NCBI GenBank assembly: GCA_030605385.1
Contig: JAUWIL010000001.1
Span: forward strand, 1 to 52,575
Direction of reading: 5' to 3'
Source: Methanobacteriota archaeon
GTDB taxonomy: Archaea; Halobacteriota; Syntropharchaeia; JAUWIL01
DNA: 52,575 nucleotides
Shown one piece after another: positions 1 to 10,729 of this stretch (its first letter is position 1; every line of letters begins with the position of its first letter). The notes below the pieces were generated by a model. It searched no databases, was not told the DNA's origin, and worked only from the letters and a program-made list of their open reading frames with translations. Both the position numbers and the translations under genes were made by a program.

Positions 1-116
1 AAGAGACTAGATCCAGAGGATACCGAAATCAGGTCAAAGAAATCAAGATAAAATTCATCATCCACAACATAGACAGATATATAAAACAAAATATTCAATT
101 TATTCTGGGAGGATTT

Positions 117-2102
117 CTACGGAGCCACTGTAGTTGTTCCTTTTAAACACTCATCTATCTGTCCATCGCAGTCATCATCTATGCTGTTGTCACATACCTC
201 TGTAGTCGGTTTAACTTCGCCAACGCAACTTCCCCATGATCCTGCAGAACAAGTTTGCGTTCCAGATGCACAGGCACCAACATCACTGCCACAGGATTGT
301 GTCAGACCCTCATCTGTGCTGCCATCGCAATCATCATCTATACCGTTGCATGTTTCAGTGGTTGATCCTACTTCACCAGCACAGCTACTCCATACCCCAC
401 TTGAGCATGTTTTAGTTCCTGCTACACAGGCACCAACATCGCTGCCGCAGGATTGCGTCAGGCCCTCATCTGTGCTTCCATCGCAATCATCATCCTTGTT
501 GTTGCAGGTTTCTGTTGCACCGGGATGAATGCTTGCATCGGCATCATTGCAATCATCTCCCCCAGACGACAGAGCATAGTATCCGTCTAAATCGGCATCC
601 TGAGCCCCCAGAGGAAAACCAACAAATGTTCCATTTTGCTTTATGAGTGAGTGGGATACGCTTGCTTCAAGCTGAACCTTAGACCAAACATACAAAGCAT
701 CAAACTCATAATCCGTGCTGACTGAGAATACTTCACCTGCACTTGCAGTGAATGCGTGACCTGTGTCGGGACTGCTTGGACCTCTTGTGTTAAAGGTTCT
801 GCCGTGCGGACCTGAAACAACTACTGCATAGCCGCATCCACTTTTATCTACACCTGGCTCTATTTGAACCATAATATCACCCGACTCTAGGGCAGTAAAC
901 GTTCGTGTCACAGTGCACTCGGCACCAGTATACATATACATATACTTGACCCAATCTGGATAGCTAGAGCACACCCAGTCCGTCCCGTCCCATACAACTT
1001 TCTGGTATCCAACATATGTTTCAGGACAGGTTGAAGGCGGAGATTTATATGTTTGCGTGCAAGTACTCTGGCAGCACCTATCAGAATCAGAAGCCGCTAT
1101 AAATGCCCCACTACAATACTCAGTATTAGGGCACACATCCCCTCCCTGACTGGAACAGGTAGGATTCGGAGATGGTAACGTTGCGCTTAGTATCCTGTAA
1201 TAGCCTCCATCATAGCCTGAATAGTACATTCTCTTAGAGCCATCGTCCAATGTTATTGTATTTGATGCATATGCAGTACTGTCGTATGTTCCGCCTTTGC
1301 TTATTCTTGTTCCGCTCTCCTTGGTCAATGTCAGCCCATCTGAGGATGTAGCACTTAGTATGTTCCCACCAGATTTTGAGTAGTACATCCTGTAAGATCC
1401 ATCTGATAGTCTTATGACATCAGGATAGCATACTTGATCCGATGTGCTATCACGCTCTATACGAACGCCGCTCTCCTTGGTCCACGTGAGACCATCAGAA
1501 GATGTGGCACTGAGGATTCGGTATGCACTGCTACCCGATTCCGAGCCGAAATAGTACATTCGATACGTGCCATCATCAAGTTTTATTACCTCGGGATTGT
1601 GCACTTGCCCGCTGTCATAGGTTCCCCCAGTTGTTAACCTGTATCCACTCTCTTTCGTCCATGTTAATCCATCAGAAGAAGTTGCACTGAGGATGTAGTG
1701 GTTGGGTGCACCTCCAGCAACCCCCATATAATACATCCTATAGGATCCACTATCGAGCTTTATAACGTCTGGAGAGGCTATAGCGTCAACATTAAACTCC
1801 CCACCAGGGCTAAGCCTCACACCACTATCCTTAGTCCATGAAACACCATCTGAGGAAGTTGCACTCAATATACGCAGTGTTGAGCCGTCATAGCCTGTGT
1901 AGTACATCCTGTACCCGCCGGATATCTTCACAACATCTGAGATGTATGCATAGTTGCTGTCGTATGTTCCGCCTACATCTATCCGGATTCCACTTTCCTT
2001 CGTCCATTCTTCGCTGGCTGATGCAGGATATGCTGATATCGCCAGCATTAGCAGCAGCATCAATACCATTCCAAGTTTTATCAAACCGTACTTTTTATTC
2101 AT
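117..2102 (-). CDS. Secreted multidomain protein: signal peptide, about six Asp-box beta-propeller blades, Cys-rich linker, beta-rich domain, three C-terminal Cys-rich CxxxDDDCDGxxDEG repeats
   Basis: ORF 117..2216. Start moved to M39 because MNKKYGLIKLGMVLMLLLMLAISAYPASA is a typical signal peptide with a G-rich RBS upstream. About 45-50 aa blades repeat, each ending RILSATSSDG(L/V)(T/S)WTK (SxDxGxTW Asp-box). The C-terminus repeats CN..DDDCDG(S/Q)(T/I)DEG three times. Confidence 0.7.
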   Translation of the reverse strand: MNKKYGLIKLGMVLMLLLMLAISAYPASASEEWTKESGIRIDVGGTYDSNYAYISDVVKISGGYRMYYTGYDGSTLRILSATSSDGVSWTKDSGVRLSPGGEFNVDAIASPDVIKLDSGSYRMYYMGVAGGAPNHYILSATSSDGLTWTKESGYRLTTGGTYDSGQVHNPEVIKLDDGTYRMYYFGSESGSSAYRILSATSSDGLTWTKESGVRIERDSTSDQVCYPDVIRLSDGSYRMYYSKSGGNILSATSSDGLTLTKESGTRISKGGTYDSTAYASNTITLDDGSKRMYYSGYDGGYYRILSATLPSPNPTCSSQGGDVCPNTEYCSGAFIAASDSDRCCQSTCTQTYKSPPSTCPETYVGYQKVVWDGTDWVCSSYPDWVKYMYMYTGAECTVTRTFTALESGDIMVQIEPGVDKSGCGYAVVVSGPHGRTFNTRGPSSPDTGHAFTASAGEVFSVSTDYEFDALYVWSKVQLEASVSHSLIKQNGTFVGFPLGAQDADLDGYYALSSGGDDCNDADASIHPGATETCNNKDDDCDGSTDEGLTQSCGSDVGACVAGTKTCSSGVWSSCAGEVGSTTETCNGIDDDCDGSTDEGLTQSCGSDVGACASGTQTCSAGSWGSCVGEVKPTTEVCDNSIDDDCDGQIDECLKGTTTVAP

Positions 2103-2561
2103 TCTTTTGCCCCCCCATTCCAAAGGTTTTGCTCCATATTTCATTTTCATCAGAGTTTGCTTTGATTGGCTGGACATCTTGAGTTTCTTCACCGTAGGAT
2201 TTTGTTCATGCGGCATGGTATATTCACCGACATGCTCTCAGCGCCGACAGCTACGCTAAAACAGCCAAGAATTAGAATTATGATGAGTGCTGTAAGTGCT
2301 ATCTTTCTGTGTGCTTTATCTGCCATATGTAACCTATCCATTTGGAAATAGTGAACATAATATATTTTAGTTTGATGATGTATATGTGATTAGTAGCTTA
2401 TGGAGCTTTATCCTACATAGTTGTTTAGGTGCTTCCACATTAACTTGCAGATCCGTCTTTGCCCGCTCACATTGTAATTATGGTACAATCGGATAAAAAT
2501 GTTACCCATAAATTAAGTGTGCCTCATTAAGCTTTTTTCTGTAAGGCATGAGTAAGCTACT

Positions 2562-2720
2562 ATGTCAAAAAAAAGATACAGGACAGTCTCACTGCCAGAG
2601 GAACTTTTTGAAAAAATAGAAGCTGTAATCGAAAGCAAAGAATATGGGTACAGTAGTGTTACTGAGTTCATTAAGGAATTAGTAAGGGAGCGGTTGAGGG
2701 AGTTGGGGTATAAGGTTTAG
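2562..2720 (+). CDS. Ribbon-helix-helix (CopG/Arc-like) small DNA-binding protein, 52 aa
   Basis: ATG at 2562 to TAG at 2718-2720, below the ORF-track length cutoff. MSKKRYRTVSLPEELFEKIEAVIESKEYGYSSVTEFIKELVRERLRELGYKV fits the beta-strand (RTVSLP) plus two-helix RHH pattern. Confidence 0.6.
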   Translation: MSKKRYRTVSLPEELFEKIEAVIESKEYGYSSVTEFIKELVRERLRELGYKV

Positions 2721-2776
2721 GGGTGTAAAACTCTTTCTCCAACCTTCTATTTCTCCACTTCAAACCGGAAAATAGG

Positions 2777-2815
2777 CACGTTATGTTTATGTGTGAGTGG
2801 TGGTATAAAATAAGG
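2777..2815 (+). promoter_or_regulatory. Copy 1 of a ~40-nt conserved motif with TATA-like box, directly upstream of the TIR-like gene
   Basis: CACGTTATGTTTATGTGTGAGTGGTGGTATAAAATAAGG. A TATAAAATAA box lies about 25 nt before the GGAGGTGA RBS and the ATG at 2832. Confidence 0.45.
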
Positions 2816-2831
2816 GGGAGGTGAGTCATCC

Positions 2832-3314
2832 ATGCCATACACAGTTTTTCTAAGCCATTGCACGAGTCCCGAGGATATGAAATATGTGAATTGGTTCGAT
2901 TCTACACTTAGAAATCAATGTATTGGGTGCTATGTTGCTGAATGGTATCGAGAGCCAAACAACCTTATAACAGACAAAATAAAAAACGCAATTAATGATA
3001 GCCAATGCGCTCTAGTATTATGGACGAAAAAAGGAAGAGGATCCCAATTCGTCAATCAAGAAGTAGGTTATGCTGAAGATAAAAAACTAATAATACCTCT
3101 TGTAGAAAAGGGAGTTCCATTAGGAGGGTTCCTTTATGGAAGGGATTGTATTGAATTTGAAAGAAACAATCCAACAGGAGCATTAAATAGTACCGTTGAA
3201 TATATCAATCAACTTAAGCTTGCCAAAGAGCAACAGGATATGGCAACGGGCATGGTTACTCTTCTCATTAGCCTTTTTACACTCGGAGGTCTACTTGCTG
3301 CAGCATCAAGGTAA
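2832..3314 (+). CDS. TIR-like domain protein with C-terminal transmembrane helix
   Basis: The N-terminus YTVFLSHCTSPED, then SQCALVLWTKKG...FVNQEVGYA...KLIIPLV, matches the TIR/DUF1863 layout (strand-SH start, conserved W/E helix). The last ~25 aa (GMVTLLISLFTLGGLLAAA) are hydrophobic. GGAGGTGA RBS lies 8 nt upstream. Confidence 0.6.
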   Translation: MPYTVFLSHCTSPEDMKYVNWFDSTLRNQCIGCYVAEWYREPNNLITDKIKNAINDSQCALVLWTKKGRGSQFVNQEVGYAEDKKLIIPLVEKGVPLGGFLYGRDCIEFERNNPTGALNSTVEYINQLKLAKEQQDMATGMVTLLISLFTLGGLLAAASR

Positions 3315-3326
3315 GAAACCTTCTTC

Positions 3327-3593
3327 CTAATACTTATTTTTACAGTATTGCTCTATTTGGTTCAACATCCCCTCGCTACCCGCAACGACCTTAATGTCTC
3401 GCAAGTCCTCCACTATCTTTTCAAAGACCTTGCATTTTCCTTTGAGGTGGGCGAGAGGGTGAAGATAAAAATCGACCCGGAGGGAGAAAGACTGATCGTT
3501 GAGAAACGGTACTCGTTTTGTCTCTCTTTTGTCTCTCTGCACTCTATTAAAGATTGTCAGAGGGTGCGACTCAGATAAAGTTAACTTTGTCAT
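3327..3593 (-). CDS. Hypothetical protein, last gene of a four-gene minus-strand operon
   Basis: ATG start with a GAGG RBS. It overlaps the stop of the upstream gene by 23 nt. No recognisable domain. Confidence 0.4.
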   Translation of the reverse strand: MTKLTLSESHPLTIFNRVQRDKRETKRVPFLNDQSFSLRVDFYLHPLAHLKGKCKVFEKIVEDLRDIKVVAGSEGMLNQIEQYCKNKY

Positions 3594-4401
3594 CTTTTAC
3601 CGCCTCTAGTTTATCCTCCCATATGTTATACTGGGTCATGTATTTCTCCCTCCTCTCGGCTAATCTTGTATCTAATTGAGTGGATTGTACGAACTCCTCT
3701 ATTTCGTTTGCCATCCTTCTTATCGTATCTATATCGCTTTTTATTTCCTCGCATTCCCTTATTTCCAATAGTTCTTTCTCGAATCTAGGAAAGATATCTT
3801 TAATGTAAATATGGCTATGTTTTTCCCCCAATATTGATCTTGTTAGTTTTGGGACGCCATCTCTTTTTAACCATTGTTTGCCATCTTTCATTCCAAATTC
3901 CGCTTCAAATTTGGGGATGTATCGTTCAAGTTCCTCGGAAGTCTCTATCCACCCTTCAACTTTTTCTTTGATATCCTTTTCTACTTCTCCTAGGTTAGAG
4001 TTATATTCTCCAACCTGTTTTCGGTATTCTGCTACGTCCTCAACCAGCTCCTTATGTCTTTTAATAAAATCTTTTTCAGCACCCGTATCGCCTTTTAAAC
4101 TCGGCCCCCAATATCTTAAAGAATCTATATTCCCACTCTTTATTTCAGATATAGTTTCCCCATTCATATATAGAGTTCTCATGATGGGGTCTATTATCTT
4201 GGCTATCGCGATTACTACACTGTCTCTTTCTCTGTCTTTACGTAGTTCATCTACCTGCTCACTTACCTTTTTGACACACACCCAAGTTATTATTGCTAAG
4301 AGTGCTGTTGCAACTGCAGTGACTGCTGCTGCGAGATTATTTGTTATTCCCTCTACCGCCATCACTACTATTTCTTCTGCTACCATTACCACTGTTTGCA
4401 A
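3571..4401 (-). CDS. Membrane-anchored helical/coiled-coil protein, unknown function
   Basis: N-terminal hydrophobic helix (AAAVTAVATALLAIITWVCV), followed by about 230 aa rich in E/K with heptad-like character. No known catalytic motif seen. Confidence 0.55.
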   Translation of the reverse strand: MQTVVMVAEEIVVMAVEGITNNLAAAVTAVATALLAIITWVCVKKVSEQVDELRKDRERDSVVIAIAKIIDPIMRTLYMNGETISEIKSGNIDSLRYWGPSLKGDTGAEKDFIKRHKELVEDVAEYRKQVGEYNSNLGEVEKDIKEKVEGWIETSEELERYIPKFEAEFGMKDGKQWLKRDGVPKLTRSILGEKHSHIYIKDIFPRFEKELLEIRECEEIKSDIDTIRRMANEIEEFVQSTQLDTRLAERREKYMTQYNIWEDKLEAVKDDKVNFI

Positions 4402-4461
4402 CCCTCCTATCTATAACAGGAACAGTTGTCAGCCAAATGAAAGGGCTGAACGTCTAAACTC

Positions 4462-4977
4462 CTAGTTCCTCCCTCTCTCTTTTGCAATAGCTTCTTGTAT
4501 CATTCTTTTAACCCTATCTTCATCCTGATTAATATCATCTTCATTGAACCACAGAACCTTCCACCCCCTCTCATTTAGTGCGTTCTCCTTCCCCGCATCT
4601 CTTTCTTTTGCATGCCAGTAGTCAGCGCCAGGCTCTATAGCAACTTTTTCGTTTACAAATGCGAAGTCGATCCAATATCTTGAAACATTGTACTGCTTTT
4701 CGTAATCCTCATGTTCTTTGAAGCACAGTTCGTTTAGATATTGCTCAGTCCTTTTTTCCAAGTCTGTGTCTTTTTTTGATGGCGGCACTACTTCTCGTTC
4801 AAAACGAACTTCATCTACTACAAAATTTAGTTCACAGTCTTGACAAGTTACTATGAAAGGAGGCTTCTGCTTAAGATAAAGGTTAAAGATGTTATAATAT
4901 CTCATACATTTTGGACATTTTGTCCACAGGTTCGTCCCACCGCCTATGTACGCAATACTTTTCATCATCTCTACCAT
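4462..4977 (-). CDS. Zinc-ribbon plus DUF559 (Vsr-like endonuclease fold) protein
   Basis: CPKC...CQDC zinc ribbon at the N-terminus. The C-terminus YWIDFAFVNEKVAIEPGADYWH...RDAGKENALNERGWKVLWFNEDDI matches the DUF559 pattern (Y.vDF...IE.DG..H...D..R...L...G..vlRf). Confidence 0.6.
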   Translation of the reverse strand: MVEMMKSIAYIGGGTNLWTKCPKCMRYYNIFNLYLKQKPPFIVTCQDCELNFVVDEVRFEREVVPPSKKDTDLEKRTEQYLNELCFKEHEDYEKQYNVSRYWIDFAFVNEKVAIEPGADYWHAKERDAGKENALNERGWKVLWFNEDDINQDEDRVKRMIQEAIAKERGRN

Positions 4978-4978
4978 A

Positions 4979-5521
4979 TTACCGCAGCTCCAACAATTCT
5001 ATCCCATATTTTTCCAATGTGGACAGCAACTCTGGATCTCTCTGCTTGCAGATTATCAGCTTCTGTATCTCGTTGACAGGATAGTTTTCTTTAACAAGAA
5101 CTTCGTAACTCAGCACTTGCCCGATTGCTTCGAAATTCAGTTTATCTTTGATTTCCGCTAAAACAATATTCTTATCCTTTATCATGTTAAGGAATCCTCT
5201 TTCAATATCTTCATCAGGAGACTTAGATCTCTTCCTGAATTTCACTATTCTTACATTATAAGAATCAGGAGTTTGAGCGCCAGTTTTTCCTTCAGGAATA
5301 AATATAGCATCAACTCTTTTTATTTCAGTTGACACGGTCTCACTCTCAAACACAGGTTTAACATGTACTTCTGCATAAATAGTTCCCCTAATTTCAGGAT
5401 CTTCTAACATCTTTTTATAATATTTATGCAACAATATGTCTTCTTTCCCCTTTGTCTTATTAGGTGGCCAAGGATCAGTATATGTTCCCATCACCAGGCC
5501 TACTGCTGACTTTTTAGCCAT
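4979..5521 (-). CDS. Putative PD-(D/E)xK nuclease-fold protein
   Basis: ORF 4979..5563. Start set to the ATG at 5521, which has a GGTGAT RBS 6 nt upstream. VDAIFIP ... VLAEIKDK gives a D...E-x-K arrangement. One nt separates its stop from the next gene's start. Confidence 0.45.
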   Translation of the reverse strand: MAKKSAVGLVMGTYTDPWPPNKTKGKEDILLHKYYKKMLEDPEIRGTIYAEVHVKPVFESETVSTEIKRVDAIFIPEGKTGAQTPDSYNVRIVKFRKRSKSPDEDIERGFLNMIKDKNIVLAEIKDKLNFEAIGQVLSYEVLVKENYPVNEIQKLIICKQRDPELLSTLEKYGIELLELR

Positions 5522-5625
5522 GTTCTTATCACCTTGCCATACTAACTTAACTATCAGGTGCAACCAACTTAAATGTACTTCTAGACATTTCTATACGCTT
5601 TCATGCTCCCATCAGAATAACAGCT

Positions 5626-5665
5626 CACGTTATGTTTATGTGTGAGTGATAGCATAAGAATAATG
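5626..5665 (+). promoter_or_regulatory. Copy 2 of the same motif, in the spacer between the minus-strand operon and the PIN gene
   Basis: CACGTTATGTTTATGTGTGAGTGATAGCATAAGAATAATG. The first 23 nt are identical to copy 1. Confidence 0.4.
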
Positions 5666-5822
5666 ATAGCTTTGATCTCAGGAAGATTGAAGTTCAAGCA
5701 TGAAGGTGTGTAAGCAAAATAGATTTCGTATGTCGTACCAAGATGATAGAATATATGGCATTAATGTCTGGTATGCCTAAGTTAGGCGACACACATATAT
5801 GTGAAGTAAACACGTAGGGATT

Positions 5823-6293
5823 ATGATGAAACGGAAGTTTAGAGTATACATAGACACGTCGGTCATCGGGGGATATTTAGACGAGGAGTTTAAAGATGCT
5901 TCAACGATGCTTGTTGGAAGATTTAAGAGAGGGGAGCTTGGAGCAGTAATCTCAGAGATCACCAAACTTGAATTGAAAAAAGCACCCAGCGATGTGCAGG
6001 GTGTGCTTAAAGAAATACCAGAAGAAAATATAGAGTATGTTGAACTAACCGATGAAGCAACAACCTTGGCTAAGGGATACGTATCTGACGGTGTATTGGA
6101 TGAAAACAAAATTGCAGATGCACAGCATATAGCCATCGCTACAGTTCATAATGTAGATCTGATTGTGAGTTGGAATTTTAAACACATAGTCAACATTAAT
6201 AAAATCAGAGGCTTCAATGCGGTAAACTTGAAAATGGGCTATCCACTAATAGATATAAGAAGCCCTCAGGAGGTGATATCCTATGAAGAATAA
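5823..6293 (+). CDS. PIN-domain protein (VapC-like toxin)
   Basis: YIDTSVIGG (first acidic residue), ISEITKLE, ADAQHIAIA and the SWNFKH C-terminal motif follow the PIN-domain spacing. Confidence 0.6.
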   Translation: MMKRKFRVYIDTSVIGGYLDEEFKDASTMLVGRFKRGELGAVISEITKLELKKAPSDVQGVLKEIPEENIEYVELTDEATTLAKGYVSDGVLDENKIADAQHIAIATVHNVDLIVSWNFKHIVNINKIRGFNAVNLKMGYPLIDIRSPQEVISYEE

Positions 6294-6414
6294 AAAATTT
6301 GATGCAGTGAAAATGATGAGGGAGATAAGGGACGAATTAAGTAAAAAATTTATACACATGACTTTTGAAGAGCAGAAAAAGTTCATCAAGAAAAGTCTAG
6401 AGCAGACAGCATAG
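6283..6414 (+). CDS. Small 43-aa protein overlapping the PIN gene stop, possible cognate antitoxin or partner
   Basis: ATG at 6283 overlaps the PIN gene 3' end by 11 nt. MKNKKFDAVKMMREIRDELSKKFIHMTFEEQKKFIKKSLEQTA is helical and charged. Below the ORF-track cutoff. Confidence 0.35.
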   Translation: MKNKKFDAVKMMREIRDELSKKFIHMTFEEQKKFIKKSLEQTA

Positions 6415-6482
6415 GGGGCATACACGTCGCATGAAAGGCACCGGTAGCATATATGGGCATGTGAAGGGCAGGATAATGATTT

Positions 6483-6881
6483 ATGTCACAAAAAGGTTGG
6501 TATTATAATCCCCCCAAGCCAAAGGTTCCTGAGGTAGAAAAAAACAGGATTAAGAGCATTTGTGGTGAGTATATTAGGACTGTTTTAAAACCTAAACATA
6601 TAATCCCCAGCCCCTCACATAAAGAGTATTATCATATTGAAGATATGTTTACAAAATGGTGGCGGAATTACTTTTATTTTTATGCCAAATACCATTATAC
6701 AGATCCAAATGCAATTAAGGAGTTTTTAGATCATGGCTTTGCCAGATTGGAATATGTTAATGAACACAGGTTCAATTTATCGTATATGAGACATACAGGA
6801 CAATGGTGGGAGGTTTTTTCAGAATTATCATTGGAAGAATGCTTAGACACCATCGAAGAAATGCCACATTTTAATCCATAG
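6483..6881 (+). CDS. Hypothetical protein, DUF3024-like
   Basis: Clean 132-aa ORF. The W/Y-rich core and the C-terminal GFARLEY...W.L.YMRHTGQWWEV...L.E.L..IEE resemble DUF3024 as I recall it. Not verified. Confidence 0.4.
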   Translation: MSQKGWYYNPPKPKVPEVEKNRIKSICGEYIRTVLKPKHIIPSPSHKEYYHIEDMFTKWWRNYFYFYAKYHYTDPNAIKEFLDHGFARLEYVNEHRFNLSYMRHTGQWWEVFSELSLEECLDTIEEMPHFNP

Positions 6882-7053
6882 AAAAGGCTAAATAAAGCAT
6901 ACTATTTACATGAAAGCTAACGGACTCGCATAACAGGTGGGCATGCGGTTCGCTGCATTCACCAAAATGCTCGGCTTGATCACATAATGCTCTCCTCTTC
7001 GTATTGAATATTACCGATGTTACAGGCTGTTGTAATAAGTGTAATGTTGGTGA

Positions 7054-7200
7054 ACTATAACGGTTAACCCGTTTAAGCCGGGATCTGGTTTGTATCCGCC
7101 TTATTTTGCTGGTCGTGTGAGGGAGATTGAAGTCTGGGCAGGTGGATGTATTACGCAATTGGCTTCATGGCACTTCTTTGAAAATGATGATTGTACTTAA
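7054..7200 (+). pseudogene. N-terminal fragment of an archaeal-type AAA/STAND ATPase (no start codon, truncated after ~45 aa)
   Basis: The frame reads TITVNPFKPGSGLYPPYFAGRVREIEVW... The NPF.PG....PP.F.GRE.E motif is the usual N-terminus of the archaeal ATPase family. There is no P-loop downstream and the frame stops at 7198-7200. Confidence 0.3.
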
Positions 7201-7277
7201 ACTCATGTTGTTCAATTGGGTTTAATCGAGAAACATTTAAACACAATTATATTCATTATTATAACTGAGGTGATAAA

Positions 7278-7421
7278 ATGGAAAAAAGACAAGTATGTTT
7301 TACCATTGAGGAGGATATAGTGAAAAACATGGAAGAACTAAGGGACAAAACCGGCGTGCCAGTGAGCAAGCAAATTGAGTTAGCTCTGAAAGGATACAAA
7401 ATCGAAAAAGTAGAGCAATAG
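7278..7421 (+). CDS. Ribbon-helix-helix small protein, 47 aa
   Basis: MEKRQVCFTIEEDIVKNMEELRDKTGVPVSKQIELALKGYKIEKVEQ shows the strand-helix-helix pattern. GAGGTGA RBS upstream. Confidence 0.5.
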   Translation: MEKRQVCFTIEEDIVKNMEELRDKTGVPVSKQIELALKGYKIEKVEQ

Positions 7422-7518
7422 TAAATTTCGGAGCATTTTAATGACGTATATTGAATTGAGTTTGGGTATCGTTATTGGTATTATTTTATCTTTAGTAGTG
7501 GATGTCGCCACAATACGC

Positions 7519-7863
7519 CTATATCTTAACCGATATCGTATCTTGATCTTCAAGAAAAACCTCTGCCACTGAATGGTTCGCCAGATCCAGTGCGTCTGCA
7601 ATTGCTTTTGGTATGGTTATCATGTATGAGTTGCCTCTTTTCGAGATTTTCACTTTCTCGTGTTTCTTAGCTTGCAGGAACAGGTAGGCTTTTTCCAGCG
7701 CTCCTGGGCTGAGCAGCTCATACTTGCACTTGGCGCATTTCCAACCACGTACTTTCAATCCTTCCACATCGATCTCGGTGCGCTCACACAGGTTGTTGCA
7801 CTGAGGGCACTTTAATCCCCCCTCTTCAAGATTCTTTAGTTCATCTATTTTTGATTCCGACAT
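7519..7863 (-). CDS. Antitoxin-like protein: YgiT/MqsA-type zinc ribbon fused to an AbrB/SpoVT domain
   Basis: CPQC...CAKC zinc ribbon. The C-terminal VKISKRGNSYMITIPKAIADALDL...VAEVFLEDQDTISVKI is a SpoVT/AbrB swapped-hairpin signature. Confidence 0.6.
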   Translation of the reverse strand: MSESKIDELKNLEEGGLKCPQCNNLCERTEIDVEGLKVRGWKCAKCKYELLSPGALEKAYLFLQAKKHEKVKISKRGNSYMITIPKAIADALDLANHSVAEVFLEDQDTISVKI

Positions 7864-8110
7864 GTTTTATTAACCACACTTCCTCGTCCAGAGAGTATGA
7901 GTAGCTGGGCACGAGCTTGGTGAAGACGATCTGATTCTTCCGATCGATTGCCCGGCCAACCTCTCCCTTCGTCATTCTTGCATCCTCGTAGTCGTATCCA
8001 TCCTCAATTATCTCCTGTAGTTTCCAGGGCGAGATGTCATGCCTCACCATATCTTTCAGCGCGTCTTTGCTGGGAATGCATAGTTTGCTTCTGAAGCGAA
8101 CATCAAACAT
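7841..8110 (-). CDS. Small toxin-like protein (possibly DUF4258/RelE-fold), upstream partner of the AbrB antitoxin
   Basis: Overlaps the antitoxin gene by 23 nt. The ATG at 8110 gives MFDVRF... An in-frame TTG at 8158 would add 16 aa encoded by the family A repeat. Family assignment is tentative. Confidence 0.45.
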   Translation of the reverse strand: MFDVRFRSKLCIPSKDALKDMVRHDISPWKLQEIIEDGYDYEDARMTKGEVGRAIDRKNQIVFTKLVPSYSYSLDEEVWLIKHVGIKNR

Positions 8111-8162
8111 GTCTGAAAACCTTTGGTTTTCATACTGTTGCGGAACTGCGTTCCGCAAACAT
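8105..8162 (+). repeat. Family A double-hairpin unit, solo copy
   Basis: AAACATGT CTGAAAACC TTT GGTTTTCA TACTGTT GCGGAAC TGC GTTCCGC AAACAT. Confidence 0.85.
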
Positions 8163-8317
8163 CTCTGGCTCCTGTATAAACAGTATGTTTAAACACCCTA
8201 TTAAAACTTTTTGTTACCAACGTTGTTTTTATCTTCCTTATACTTCAACCGCTATGTTATTCTTTCTCAAGCAACCTTGCTGTATTATAAAGTACAACTT
8301 TGTAATACAGAGAAAAA

Positions 8318-8669
8318 TCATTTGATTTTTCTCGCTGTTTCCTCGCTTATCTCTTGCTGCTCGCTGGTTGCGCCGGTCTCTATTCTGCGCTCCCTGGCCA
8401 TCCTGATCACGTCATACACGCTCTTGTTCAGCATGACTGCAGCATGTCTAAAACACTGCGTGTTTTATACGGTTGAAAAACTACGTTTTTCAAACACTGC
8501 TGAGAGATATCCTGCCGCGCGCGTATAAGTCCATCACGTACTCTGCAGCCCCCATGTAAAAAAGCTGTCTCATTGTAGTGCTTTTGTCCACGTACATCTC
8601 CCCGGTGCGCAGCTCCACCAGTGGAAGAATGTCCTCCGGTATTCGTAGTGGATATGATACCATGCCCAT
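8318..8669 (-). pseudogene. UPF0175-family (antitoxin-like) gene split by a family A hairpin unit
   Basis: The 5' part, 8669..8490, encodes MGMVSYPLRIPEDILPLVEL...AAEYVMDLYARGRISLSSV and stops inside the repeat. The 3' part, 8443..8318, encodes AAVMLNKSVYDVIRMARERRIE... Joining the two flanks gives an in-frame ...GRISLSSAAVMLNKS... typical of UPF0175. Confidence 0.6.
8444..8497 (+). mobile_element. Family A double-hairpin unit inserted inside a coding sequence
   Basis: CATGT CTAAAACAC TGC GTGTTTTAT ACGGTT GAAAAAC TAC GTTTTTC AAACA, flanked by CA on both sides. Confidence 0.75.
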
Positions 8670-8799
8670 TTACATCACCTCCATCAGTTTATTTTTTGCT
8701 TTTAGATAACTTGACCTGTTTACGTACACCCTGACGTTTTCCAGCGCCGCATACAAAGTATGTGAAGCGCGCAAAGAACGAAACGCCACTTCCATCCAG

Positions 8800-9777
8800 C
8801 TATATCTTATCTATCTCGCGCATCTCGTTATAGTTAATGGCGGCGCCCATGGCGTATATCTCCGCAGATGAATTATCCTCCAGGACTGCGGCAATCATGT
8901 TAATTCCAGTGCACATGGTTATGCCGGCATGCCGTCCACTCACACGTATTCCAAGGTTTTCTTCCTCGCTGATCTTTATGGTGCCGTCGATACCTATACC
9001 TGCCATGTTTTCGATTATGCGCTTTGCATCATCGACTGCTGCGGAAGGTATTTCTCTGTAGTTGGCGAGAATCTTGCCGCTGCCCGTTCTGGCTGCACTT
9101 AGTATTGACGTCATGCCCCTGCTTATGAATATCTCGGTTGGATTCATTGATGTGCCGCTGTATCCTATCAGATCTGTGAATGCGGTTGGGCTGCTGCCAA
9201 GTATCTGTAGCGTGCCCGAGTATTTCATATCTACTGGTATTCCGCTTCTGATCAGCGCGCCGTCCACCGTCATGCTGCATATTGTTGCTATGCCAACCCT
9301 CCCGAAAGGTATGACAATACTGCCCCCAGCTCCTTCTTCCAGTATTTTCACCCGATTGCTCACAGCGTACCCTGCCTGTATAACCTCCTTTATTATGCCA
9401 ACGGCACGGTCAAACAGGCCTTTATCTACTATAAGTACGTCGCCGATCACCATGCCGCCGCCCTCTTCCAGATTGAATACCGTGTTGTAGATGAGTTCCT
9501 CTATCCTTGTTATCGTGAAGCCGAGACGGTCTTCCACAAGAGCGTCCTCAAGTTCTTTCAATCCGAAACTGGTTATGCTTCTGCCGTAGTTCCCGTGTTT
9601 GACGGTAAGCGTAGCACTGTCGAGTGAGGCAAGGTGGTACCTCACAGCGCGTTCGGTCACATCATACCCCCTCTTCATCAGTTCTTCTGCGATAGCCCTG
9701 GCTCCAAGCGGATCAGTGCTGTTACTGAGTATCCGCAGTATCTCTATCAGCATCCGCTCTGTCTTTTTTCTTGCCAT
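8800..9777 (-). CDS. nrpR: NrpR-type nitrogen regulatory repressor (wHTH plus DUF128 domain)
   Basis: The N-terminus ILRILSNSTDPLGARAIAEELMKRGYDVTERAVRYHL is a winged HTH. The remainder matches the DUF128/NRD layout of short Methanosarcina-type NrpR. Confidence 0.7.
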   Translation of the reverse strand: MARKKTERMLIEILRILSNSTDPLGARAIAEELMKRGYDVTERAVRYHLASLDSATLTVKHGNYGRSITSFGLKELEDALVEDRLGFTITRIEELIYNTVFNLEEGGGMVIGDVLIVDKGLFDRAVGIIKEVIQAGYAVSNRVKILEEGAGGSIVIPFGRVGIATICSMTVDGALIRSGIPVDMKYSGTLQILGSSPTAFTDLIGYSGTSMNPTEIFISRGMTSILSAARTGSGKILANYREIPSAAVDDAKRIIENMAGIGIDGTIKISEEENLGIRVSGRHAGITMCTGINMIAAVLEDNSSAEIYAMGAAINYNEMREIDKI

Positions 9778-9840
9778 AGCACCAATACTCCAACTGGGGT
9801 GTCATTCTGTATCTATTTTTCTGCACGTATTTGCACACTG

Positions 9841-9895
9841 CTTGCGGAGCAAAGCTCCGCAACCGTATAAAACACGCAGTGTTTTATACATGTAT
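9841..9895 (-). repeat. Family A double-hairpin unit, solo copy in inverted orientation
   Basis: The reverse complement reads ACATGT ATAAAACAC TGC GTGTTTTAT ACGGTT GCGGAGC TTT GCTCCGC AAG. Confidence 0.8.
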
Positions 9896-9934
9896 CTGGC
9901 AAACGTGAGATATTTCACCCACATATCGAATAGT

Positions 9935-10729
9935 TCAGCCCACGCAGTATATGATATTTGATATTTCTGCCAGCTTATCGGCGGGTATCTGTTCTGCACG
10001 CAGTTTAAGATAGTCCTCAGGTATATCATCAAGCGCTTTTGTTATATCTAACTGGGGCAGCATATGACCCGTCTTAAGAAGCGCCTTTCGCAGGGTCTTG
10101 CGGCGCTGTGTGAATATCGCAGTTATAAAATCCATGAAAAAATCCTCATTCCTGACGCTGTACGGCGGCTTGCGCGGTTTTAGTTCAACCACGGCAGACG
10201 TTACCTCTGGCATCGGATAAAAAGCGCTCCGCGGCACTACCTCAAGTATTCTTGGCGTCGTATAGTAGTTCACGGCTATTGACAATCTGCCGTAGTTCTT
10301 TGAGCCAAATTCTGCGGTCATGCGCCTGGCAAACTCGTACTGGTACATCAGAACTGCCAGCCTGAAGCCCAGCCCGATTAGCCTGAATGTAATCCTGGAC
10401 GATATGGAATACGGCAGGTTTGAAACTGCTTTATCCACCTCAGGCAGATCTATTTTCATCGCGTCGGCATGTATTAACTCAATATTATCTCTACCACGGT
10501 ACTTGTTTTCCAGTTCTCCGAACAAATCCTTATCCACTTCTATCGCTATGACTCTTCCAGCCTTCTCAACCAGCTTATCTGTCAGGTTTCCATAACCTGG
10601 TCCTATTTCGAGTATGGTCTCTTCACTGCCTATACCAGCATACTCCACGATGCGCTCTATTACCCGCTCGTCTCTGAGAAAATGCTGACCTCTACTGCGC
10701 CTGCGCATGATACCACTGCCACCGGTCAT
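9935..10729 (-). CDS. ksgA: 16S rRNA (adenine1518/1519-N6)-dimethyltransferase KsgA/Dim1
   Basis: GQHFL, the SAM motif ILEIGPGYGNLT, and NLPYSISS. Confidence 0.9.
   Translation of the reverse strand: MTGGSGIMRRRSRGQHFLRDERVIERIVEYAGIGSEETILEIGPGYGNLTDKLVEKAGRVIAIEVDKDLFGELENKYRGRDNIELIHADAMKIDLPEVDKAVSNLPYSISSRITFRLIGLGFRLAVLMYQYEFARRMTAEFGSKNYGRLSIAVNYYTTPRILEVVPRSAFYPMPEVTSAVVELKPRKPPYSVRNEDFFMDFITAIFTQRRKTLRKALLKTGHMLPQLDITKALDDIPEDYLKLRAEQIPADKLAEISNIIYCVG

Follow-up and report, generated by a model that had tools for sequence, protein, structure and literature searches.

A minimal TIR protein with a predicted C-terminal membrane anchor in a Methanobacteriota archaeon and its widespread, uncharacterized family

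We analyzed a 52,575-nt stretch of DNA from a Methanobacteriota archaeon (contig JAUWIL010000001.1, positions 1–52,575; in its whole length referred to here as the window) with respect to two small open reading frames (ORFs) on its forward strand, one of 52 residues that appears to encode a ribbon-helix-helix (RHH) protein and one of 160 residues that encodes a TIR domain followed by a predicted C-terminal transmembrane (TM) helix, an architecture for which we use the term TIR-TM. The initial annotation of this DNA had proposed that the two genes form a minimal defense or abortive module, an interpretation that in the light of sequence comparisons seems half right. The membrane-tethered TIR protein is probably catalytic and a conflict role for it is plausible, whereas the proposed module with the RHH gene fails, that pairing having been encountered beside the window's TIR-TM gene only. 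We consider, at somewhat better than even confidence, that the feature is a single self-contained gene encoding a minimal, tail-anchored conflict or defense protein of the TIR NADase type.

Results

Both ORFs were confirmed from the sequence, at positions 2562–2720 (RHH, + strand) and 2832–3314 (TIR-TM, + strand), and their coordinates, sizes and spacing match the initial annotation exactly, there being no overlap between them and precisely 111 nt from the RHH stop codon to the TIR-TM start codon. The 160-residue protein is undoubtedly a TIR protein since it matched two TIR models of Pfam above their cut-offs and has the matching fold. The match to TIR_2 (PF13676) covered residues 5–111 with 47.5 bits (cut-off 28, E 3e-12), and that to ThsB_TIR (PF08937, formerly DUF1863) reached 23.5 bits (cut-off 21.2), both being models that the initial annotation had suggested. 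An AlphaFold (AF2) model made from 11 sequences had a predicted local distance difference test (pLDDT) score of 88, and its best Foldseek matches in the PDB were the TIR domains of SPARTA TIR-APAZ, RPS4/RUN1, TIR-STING, BtTir, SARM1 and ThsB, each with a probability of 1.00. Based on the profile match and the model, the TIR domain extends over residues 3–114 (nt 2838–3173, + strand).

After the TIR core, the model has a single continuous helix formed by residues 115–159, with one residue beyond its end. Its first part is modeled as an amphipathic stalk (residues 115–137, nt 3174–3242, + strand) and its last part, 22 of the 160 residues, is the predicted tail-anchor TM helix (residues 138–159, nt 3243–3308, + strand), which is uncharged and strongly hydrophobic, with a Kyte-Doolittle mean of 2.16 for the 17-mer at residues 141–157. 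Because this uninterrupted helix ends in the uncharged hydrophobic segment, the protein is predicted to be of the tail-anchored type with its TIR domain in the cytoplasm, and the prediction has the features expected of such proteins, namely a lone TM helix at the extreme C-terminus, no signal peptide and a cytoplasmic bulk. No second domain besides the TIR domain and the TM helix was detected in the 160-residue protein by Pfam profiles or in the model. The earlier description of a bare TIR domain with one C-terminal TM helix thus agrees with the profiles, the model and the fold matches.

A profile search of PDB sequences returned as its best matches the active NADases AbTir (34.9 bits), BtTir, TIR-STING and the CRISPR-associated Cat1, and aligned Glu77 of the window's protein (codon at nt 3060–3062, + strand) on the Glu of the AbTir WTNYE motif. 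Glu77 was kept in every one of 182 non-redundant family members of the same architecture, and the residue four positions before it is aromatic (W/Y/F) in 155 of the 182. Such strict conservation of Glu77 and of the motif around it, S-x-[WYF]-V-x-Q-E-x-G, is typical of active TIR domains. In both its alignment and its invariance, Glu77 therefore corresponds to the W-x-x-x-E-type catalytic Glu of active TIR NADases, and the suspicion that the Glu of NQEVGYA is the catalytic one was upheld as far as sequence can tell.

The TIR-TM architecture is not rare. A word-indexed search returned 10 relatives only; a full hidden Markov model (HMM) scan of 1.84 billion representatives returned 143 clusters (50% identity) at E <= 1e-30, and the family thus comprises at least 143 such clusters. 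Among the top 149 representatives, 123 are 140–215 residues long and 107 of those carry a hydrophobic C-terminal 17-mer, that is, the hydrophobic C-terminal helix is conserved along with the domain. Genome and metagenome scans located the architecture at 73 loci, the window included, which belong to Nitrospirota, Dehalococcoidia, Deltaproteobacteria, Aerophobetes, Elusimicrobia, Planctomycetota and Actinomycetota among the bacteria, to Asgard archaea, Bathyarchaeia and Thermoplasmata, and to other groups. This distribution is patchy across phyla, and the family moves horizontally between bacteria and archaea. A viral origin of the family was considered and set aside as no confirmed match was found in the IMG/VR viral contigs. 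Source databases that name members of the family call them "hypothetical protein," and in the literature collection that was searched we found no account of a prokaryotic TIR protein with a C-terminal or tail-anchor TM helix, or of an operon of TIR-TM and PIN genes. The architecture is common yet apparently undescribed. The initial annotation had remarked that the arrangement was not a recognized one, which is correct in that no published description came to light, but the architecture itself is common and its pairing with an RHH gene is not conserved.

The neighborhoods of these genes provide a view of the company that the family keeps. Solo members often adjoin genes for restriction enzymes (BglI, Tsp45I, SfiI) and type I/II methylases, as well as HEPN, ApeA, extra TIR and toxin-antitoxin genes. 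In addition, a large bacterial clade that is essentially monophyletic (36 of the 73 loci) carries a compact cassette headed by the TIR-TM gene (L001, L007–L027, L089–L124 and L127–L131; for instance L026 2428–3574 and L128 2528–3668). Its first gene encodes the TIR-TM protein (158 residues) and its second a protein of ~93 residues, the two genes sharing a 4-nt overlap in 27 of 33 cases. The third gene encodes a PIN protein in 27 loci, overlapping the 93-residue gene by 1–16 nt, but is variable, with other PIN types in L007 and L019 and MazF/PemK in L038; in L018 and L105, a Fic gene lies ~125 nt downstream without overlap. A search that began from the 93-residue protein recovered the same gene order in five of five places, and one TIR-TM/93-residue/PIN cassette sits within an ETF operon, interrupting it midway.

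The N-terminal domain of the 93-residue protein is constant, whereas its C-terminal tail differs from one type of toxin to another. As a constant domain joined to a toxin-tracking tail is the hallmark of a modular antitoxin, we regard the protein as antitoxin-like. Its AF2 model has a β-rich N-terminal domain (pLDDT ~86) and a poorly ordered tail, and the protein had no match in Pfam and none in the PDB at E <= 0.001. Through its association with the cassette, the family as a whole keeps company with toxin-antitoxin and conflict genes, and the TIR-TM/93-residue/PIN operon is a candidate for a new three-component toxin-antitoxin or defense system. The window's own clade is outside the cassette clade and is without the 93-residue gene and the PIN or MazF partner gene of the cassette.

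Several variants of the architecture were observed. In a Promethearchaeota (Asgard) metagenome-assembled genome (L009 2344–3599), the TIR-TM gene is flanked on one side by a fragment of a TdeIII-like restriction enzyme and on the other by a HEPN-domain gene, whose start lies 5 nt past the TIR-TM stop codon. Three loci of Bathyarchaeia (L040 5270–6333, L048 5394–6336 and L051 118–1142) have two overlapping tandem TIR genes, the upstream one encoding a TIR paralog of ~180–197 residues with a weaker C-terminal hydrophobic segment and the downstream one being the TIR-TM gene, an arrangement that suggests hetero-oligomers. Haloarchaeal relatives within L042–L075 (for instance L054 5986–6609) are ~200–210 residues long and have the same TIR domain with a C-terminal zinc-ribbon-like motif, CxxC...Y(Y/F)F(D/N)P, in place of the TM helix, an alternative addition to a minimal TIR domain. 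The representative search also identified giant proteins of 1,400–2,300 residues (P0015, P0016, P0030 and P0112) with 5–7 tandem TIR domains that closely match the TIR-TM family profile.

The 52-residue product of the upstream gene may be assigned with moderate confidence to RHH proteins of the CopG/NikR-N-like kind. It scored 19.3 bits against Pfam RHH_1, slightly below the cut-off of 20.5, and matched the N-terminal RHH models of NikR (E 1.8e-5) and the viral small-protein family phrog_38461 (E 1.5e-9). Among 5.8 billion proteins it has one homolog only, with 63% protein identity (32/51), and between the two the non-synonymous divergence is 0.30 with saturated synonymous sites, indicative of purifying selection. 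The existence of this homolog and the low non-synonymous relative to synonymous divergence establish that the RHH gene is genuine, as initially annotated.

It is the partnership of the two genes that the survey of homologs did not sustain. Pfam analysis of the 85 same-strand ORFs that end within 600 nt 5' of a TIR-TM gene, in the window and 39 other loci, detected an RHH domain in the window only. A tblastn search with the RHH protein against 125 collected loci (including 72 other TIR-TM loci) gave as its sole match L086, the locus of its homolog, where no TIR gene is present within 380 nt 3' of the RHH gene. Similarity between the window and the closest TIR-TM relatives (66–72% protein identity) is confined to positions 2838–3248 at both the DNA and the translated level, so homology with those loci does not extend past the TIR coding sequence, and their neighbors are unrelated (a Mrr-like nuclease, a PEGA-like surface protein and an N6/N4 DNA methylase). 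The RHH-TIR pair is present on just one further contig (L126), whose DNA is 100% identical to that of the window and which therefore represents the same strain; it was discounted as independent confirmation. The RHH gene was thus rejected as a conserved TIR partner from the side of either gene. Homologs in housekeeping contexts without RHH partners had been named in advance as what would speak against the proposed module: the RHH partners are indeed absent, but the contexts are mostly variable islands.

The window's pair has a resemblance to type II toxin-antitoxin systems with RHH-type VapB/VapC or MazEF, in that a small RHH gene stands in front of one that may be toxic, and the TIR-TM genes of a sister clade form an operon with the antitoxin-like 93-residue gene and a PIN or MazF toxin gene. 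However, type II pairs are conserved and tightly linked, with genes that usually overlap, whereas the pair in the window is unconserved and non-overlapping, as follows from the 111-nt gap, the lack of an upstream RHH gene at the 39 other loci that were scanned, the lack of a TIR gene in L086 and the lack of homology in the flanks. Furthermore, the sister-clade TIR-TM gene is a third, upstream gene and not the toxin of a two-gene pair. From these comparisons, the RHH gene appears to encode an independent small regulator, or to be an orphan gene of the antitoxin-like kind, and to be adjacent by chance, and the pairing in the window should not be annotated as a system.

Regulatory features were sought in the DNA surrounding the two genes. 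Directly 5' of the TIR-TM start codon, a TATA-like box, TATAAAAT (2804–2811, + strand), and a Shine-Dalgarno-like site, GGAGGTGA (2817–2824, + strand), were read from the sequence, and because these precede the start we suggest that the TIR-TM gene has a promoter of its own. The motif GTGTGCCTCAT(T/A)AG, also read from the sequence (2517–2531, + strand; 171–185 in L086), is located ~45–50 nt 5' of the start codon in both RHH homologs, directly past a TATA-like box, and is a candidate promoter or autoregulatory operator element of the RHH gene. An operator common to the RHH and TIR promoters was considered and rejected, as a 6-nt match with 71%-complementary arms is too weak. Scanning for promoters and terminators of the bacterial type gave counts equal to the shuffle expectation with models that are unsuited to an archaeon, and an Rfam scan of positions 1–10000 revealed no RNA family.

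An exact 23-nt direct repeat, CACGTTATGTTTATGTGTGAGTG, has its first copy at 2777–2799 (+ strand), abutting the TATA-like box before the TIR-TM gene, and its second at 5626–5648 (+ strand), between orf194 (− strand) and a PIN gene. Two exact copies are present in the window compared to 0 expected in shuffles, and a 91% match extends to 32 nt; no match to the repeat was found in viral contigs or the other collected loci. The copies may be either a cis-regulatory element that the two regions share or the borders of an insert of 2.85 kb that carries the TIR-TM gene, together with orf88, orf276, a DUF559 gene and orf194, although the second copy may not belong to the TIR-TM feature at all. If the repeat is an insert border, the RHH gene would be outside the unit that brought the TIR-TM gene.

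These observations bear on the possibility that in this organism only, the RHH protein represses TIR-TM transcription or acts as an antitoxin, which is the least improbable of the alternatives that we weighed but an unlikely one. It would be in keeping with the location of both genes on the same strand 111 nt apart, with RHH being a classic antitoxin or repressor fold, with the physical ties of the TIR-TM family elsewhere to antitoxin-like genes, and with the sequence GTGCCT of the RHH-upstream motif occurring inverted at 2774–2781, 5' of the TIR gene (~0.05 expected by chance). It is difficult to reconcile with the survey, in which none of the 39 other loci had an upstream RHH gene, the RHH homolog was in L086 only and without a TIR gene, and homology to the closest relatives stopped at the TIR coding sequence, as well as with the TATA-like and Shine-Dalgarno-like sites that the TIR-TM gene has to itself and the 23-nt repeat, which may put the RHH gene outside and the TIR-TM gene inside a separate insert.

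By its gene content, the window is a euryarchaeal chromosome, with genes for class I LysRS, XPD, geranylgeranyl reductase, an H4MPT-dehydrogenase domain, GatD, DnaG, SecD, NrpR, Pus10 and KsgA. The TIR-TM gene is located in a low-GC island at ~2.0–7.5 kb (GC 0.37–0.40 versus 0.46–0.49 in the flanks) that is bounded by the gene for a 699-residue BNR/MopE-repeat surface protein and the NrpR gene and is rich in toxin-antitoxin-like and nuclease genes, plus several orphan ORFs. Convergent on the TIR-TM gene across a 12-nt gap is orf88 (88 residues; 3327–3593, − strand), which overlaps orf276 (276 residues; 3571–4401, − strand), whose product combines a TM helix at its N-terminus with a long coiled coil. 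The other island genes include those for a DUF559/Vsr-like endonuclease (4462–4977, − strand), the PIN protein (5823–6293, + strand; overlapped by a 43-residue ORF), a DUF3024 protein (6483–6881), an RHH_3 protein (7278–7421) and an AbrB/MazE-zinc-ribbon protein (7519–7863, − strand), the last followed downstream by a 105-residue ORF (7841–8158, − strand). Searches with orf88 and orf276 gave nothing beyond noise in Pfam, PADLOC and PHROGs and no relatives in viral contigs, nor were viral relatives found for orf276 and orf194. Since no homolog of an island gene was found near other TIR-TM genes in the 125 collected loci, all the other island genes were rejected as TIR-TM partners. The window has no neighbor in common with any other of the 73 TIR-TM loci, and in its clade no partner is conserved. 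There was no integrase among the window's profile matches, no tRNA anywhere in the window, and no ThsA-type protein, cyclase, Argonaute or other known partner among its 53 ORFs (52.5 kb).

Discussion

The window's protein has similarities to several characterized TIR proteins, each of which is different from it in arrangement. Stand-alone NADases such as AbTir, BtTir/BtpA and those of the TcpO type are alike in their TIR_2-type domain, catalytic Glu and preceding aromatic position. However, they are soluble proteins in which a coiled coil usually forms the N-terminal part, whereas the window's protein has a C-terminal stalk and tail-anchor TM helix, and the identity is <20%. CBASS and Pycsar TIR effectors are fused to a sensor domain (SAVED, STING or cNMP-binding) and accompanied by a cyclase; the 160-residue protein has no second domain and no cyclase match occurred in the window, and the CAP12/PycTIR model scored 13.4 bits against the 160-residue protein, below its cut-off of 24.7. 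The likeness to SPARTA is limited to the TIR part, there being no APAZ domain or Argonaute in the window. The Hydra Toll-receptor-related protein TRR-2 (PDB 4w8h), which appeared in both the fold and the sequence match lists, consists of a TM helix and a TIR domain with no ligand-binding domain; it is a signaling adaptor in which the TM helix precedes the TIR domain, the reverse of the order in the window's protein, and it is not known to be an NADase.

ThsB of the Thoeris system is, like the window's protein, small and almost TIR-only. It is improbable, though, that the TIR-TM protein serves as a sensor of the ThsB type, producing a cyclic ADP-ribose (cADPR) isomer or His-ADPR as the signal for an effector encoded elsewhere in the genome. 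This would be consistent with the conserved catalytic Glu, the ThsB_TIR match above the Pfam cut-off and PADLOC ThsB matches with E-values of 1e-6 to 7e-3. Those PADLOC matches are much weaker than the generic TIR_2 match, and the protein scores far better on general TIR_2 and NADase-type TIR domains. Moreover, the adjoining ThsA (SIR2-SLOG or Macro-TM) of Thoeris is absent from the window's 53 ORFs, and no ThsA-type domain was present among the 25 listed of the 65 Pfam families matched near solo homologs (113 neighbors). A membrane anchor is not known as a feature of ThsB. Membership in Thoeris, CBASS, Pycsar or SPARTA was rejected in view of the absence of partner genes and fused sensor domains.

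The nearest analog found is TirC of the amoeba Dictyostelium, an N-terminal TM helix joined to a TIR NADase, whose tether restrains an otherwise toxic, filament-forming enzyme (PMC13142454). Like the window's protein, TirC is a bare TIR domain on one hydrophobic helix and a precedent for control by a single-helix tether (PMC13142454). It differs in being eukaryotic, in the N-terminal position of its helix and in its TIR domain being of the TIR-STING lineage, and its likeness to the window's protein is one of TIR fold only.

Just as improbable as a Thoeris-type sensor is a non-enzymatic or non-conflict function, in which the membrane-tethered TIR protein would serve as a scaffold or adaptor, or would bind nucleotides in a housekeeping capacity. 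Many TIR domains do act purely in interactions and some family members lie between housekeeping genes; the invariant Glu in a motif typical of active TIR domains, the patchy phyletic spread and the location in a low-GC island argue for an enzyme engaged in conflict. The least probable alternative is that the TIR-TM protein works with the products of orf88, orf276, the DUF559 gene or orf194, or is co-regulated with the PIN gene, for although the 23-nt repeat (0 expected by chance), the 12-nt gap to orf88 and the adjacent membrane protein of orf276 are compatible with such a system, these proteins have no homologs in the 125 collected loci, PADLOC components were unmatched except for a generic homing-endonuclease model, and there is no integrase or tRNA to indicate a mobile element.

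A self-contained gene for a tail-anchored TIR NADase-type protein is thus the reading that we favor. The defense or abortive role proposed in the initial annotation remains plausible for that gene, given its low-GC island and the restriction-modification, HEPN, ApeA and toxin-antitoxin neighbors of its relatives, but not for a two-gene module. Several points weigh against this reading. The evidence for the TM helix consists of hydropathy and the model; the PADLOC matches are weak, generic ThsB matches (1e-6); the record of defense-gene neighbors is a plain listing, and several relatives lie close to housekeeping genes (ETF, ArgJ and MutS, for example). The window's own clade counts just four further sequenced members, each of them on a short contig, and the missing conservation of the RHH gene is still compatible with lineage-specific RHH regulation.

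We infer the enzymatic activity, trigger and defense role of the TIR-TM protein by analogy to characterized TIR proteins. NADase activity in SARM1, AbTir, TIR-STING, SPARTA and ThsB needs self-association. By this analogy, the TIR-TM protein would be inserted post-translationally into the membrane and stay on its inner face in an inactive, monomeric or dimeric state until a trigger, for example virus infection or membrane or envelope stress, causes its TIR domains to self-associate as those of characterized TIR NADases do. Clustered TIR domains could then cleave NAD+ via Glu77, the outcome being either NAD+ depletion, with growth arrest or abortive infection, or an ADP-ribose-derived product that acts as a signal.

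A broader proposal, which we put forward tentatively and consider rather doubtful as it stands, is that proteins of ~155–165 residues with a TIR domain and tail anchor are an undescribed, widespread class of membrane-anchored NADase immunity or addiction proteins in uncultivated bacteria and archaea, present either solo, as in the archaeon analyzed here, or at the head of a new tripartite cassette with the 93-residue antitoxin and a PIN or MazF toxin. In the cassette, the N-terminal domain of the 93-residue protein would track the TIR-TM protein and its C-terminal tail the toxin, thereby potentially coupling membrane-localized TIR activity to the release of an RNase toxin.

Conclusions

TIR domains are central to bacterial, plant and animal immunity, and how their lethal NADase activity is restrained is an active question. 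The TIR-TM proteins represent a new architecture among known TIR NADase-type effectors, and their family is widespread and uncharacterized, with at least 143 clusters in many bacterial and archaeal phyla and no functional name in the sources examined. The interest of our findings rests chiefly on this family and on the TIR-TM/93-residue/PIN cassette, and not on the gene pair in the window. If our reading is true, a TIR domain with a tail-anchor helix as its sole addition would be the simplest regulated prokaryotic TIR protein known, and the family may offer a tractable model for the control of TIR oligomerization by a membrane tether, in parallel to amoeba TirC.

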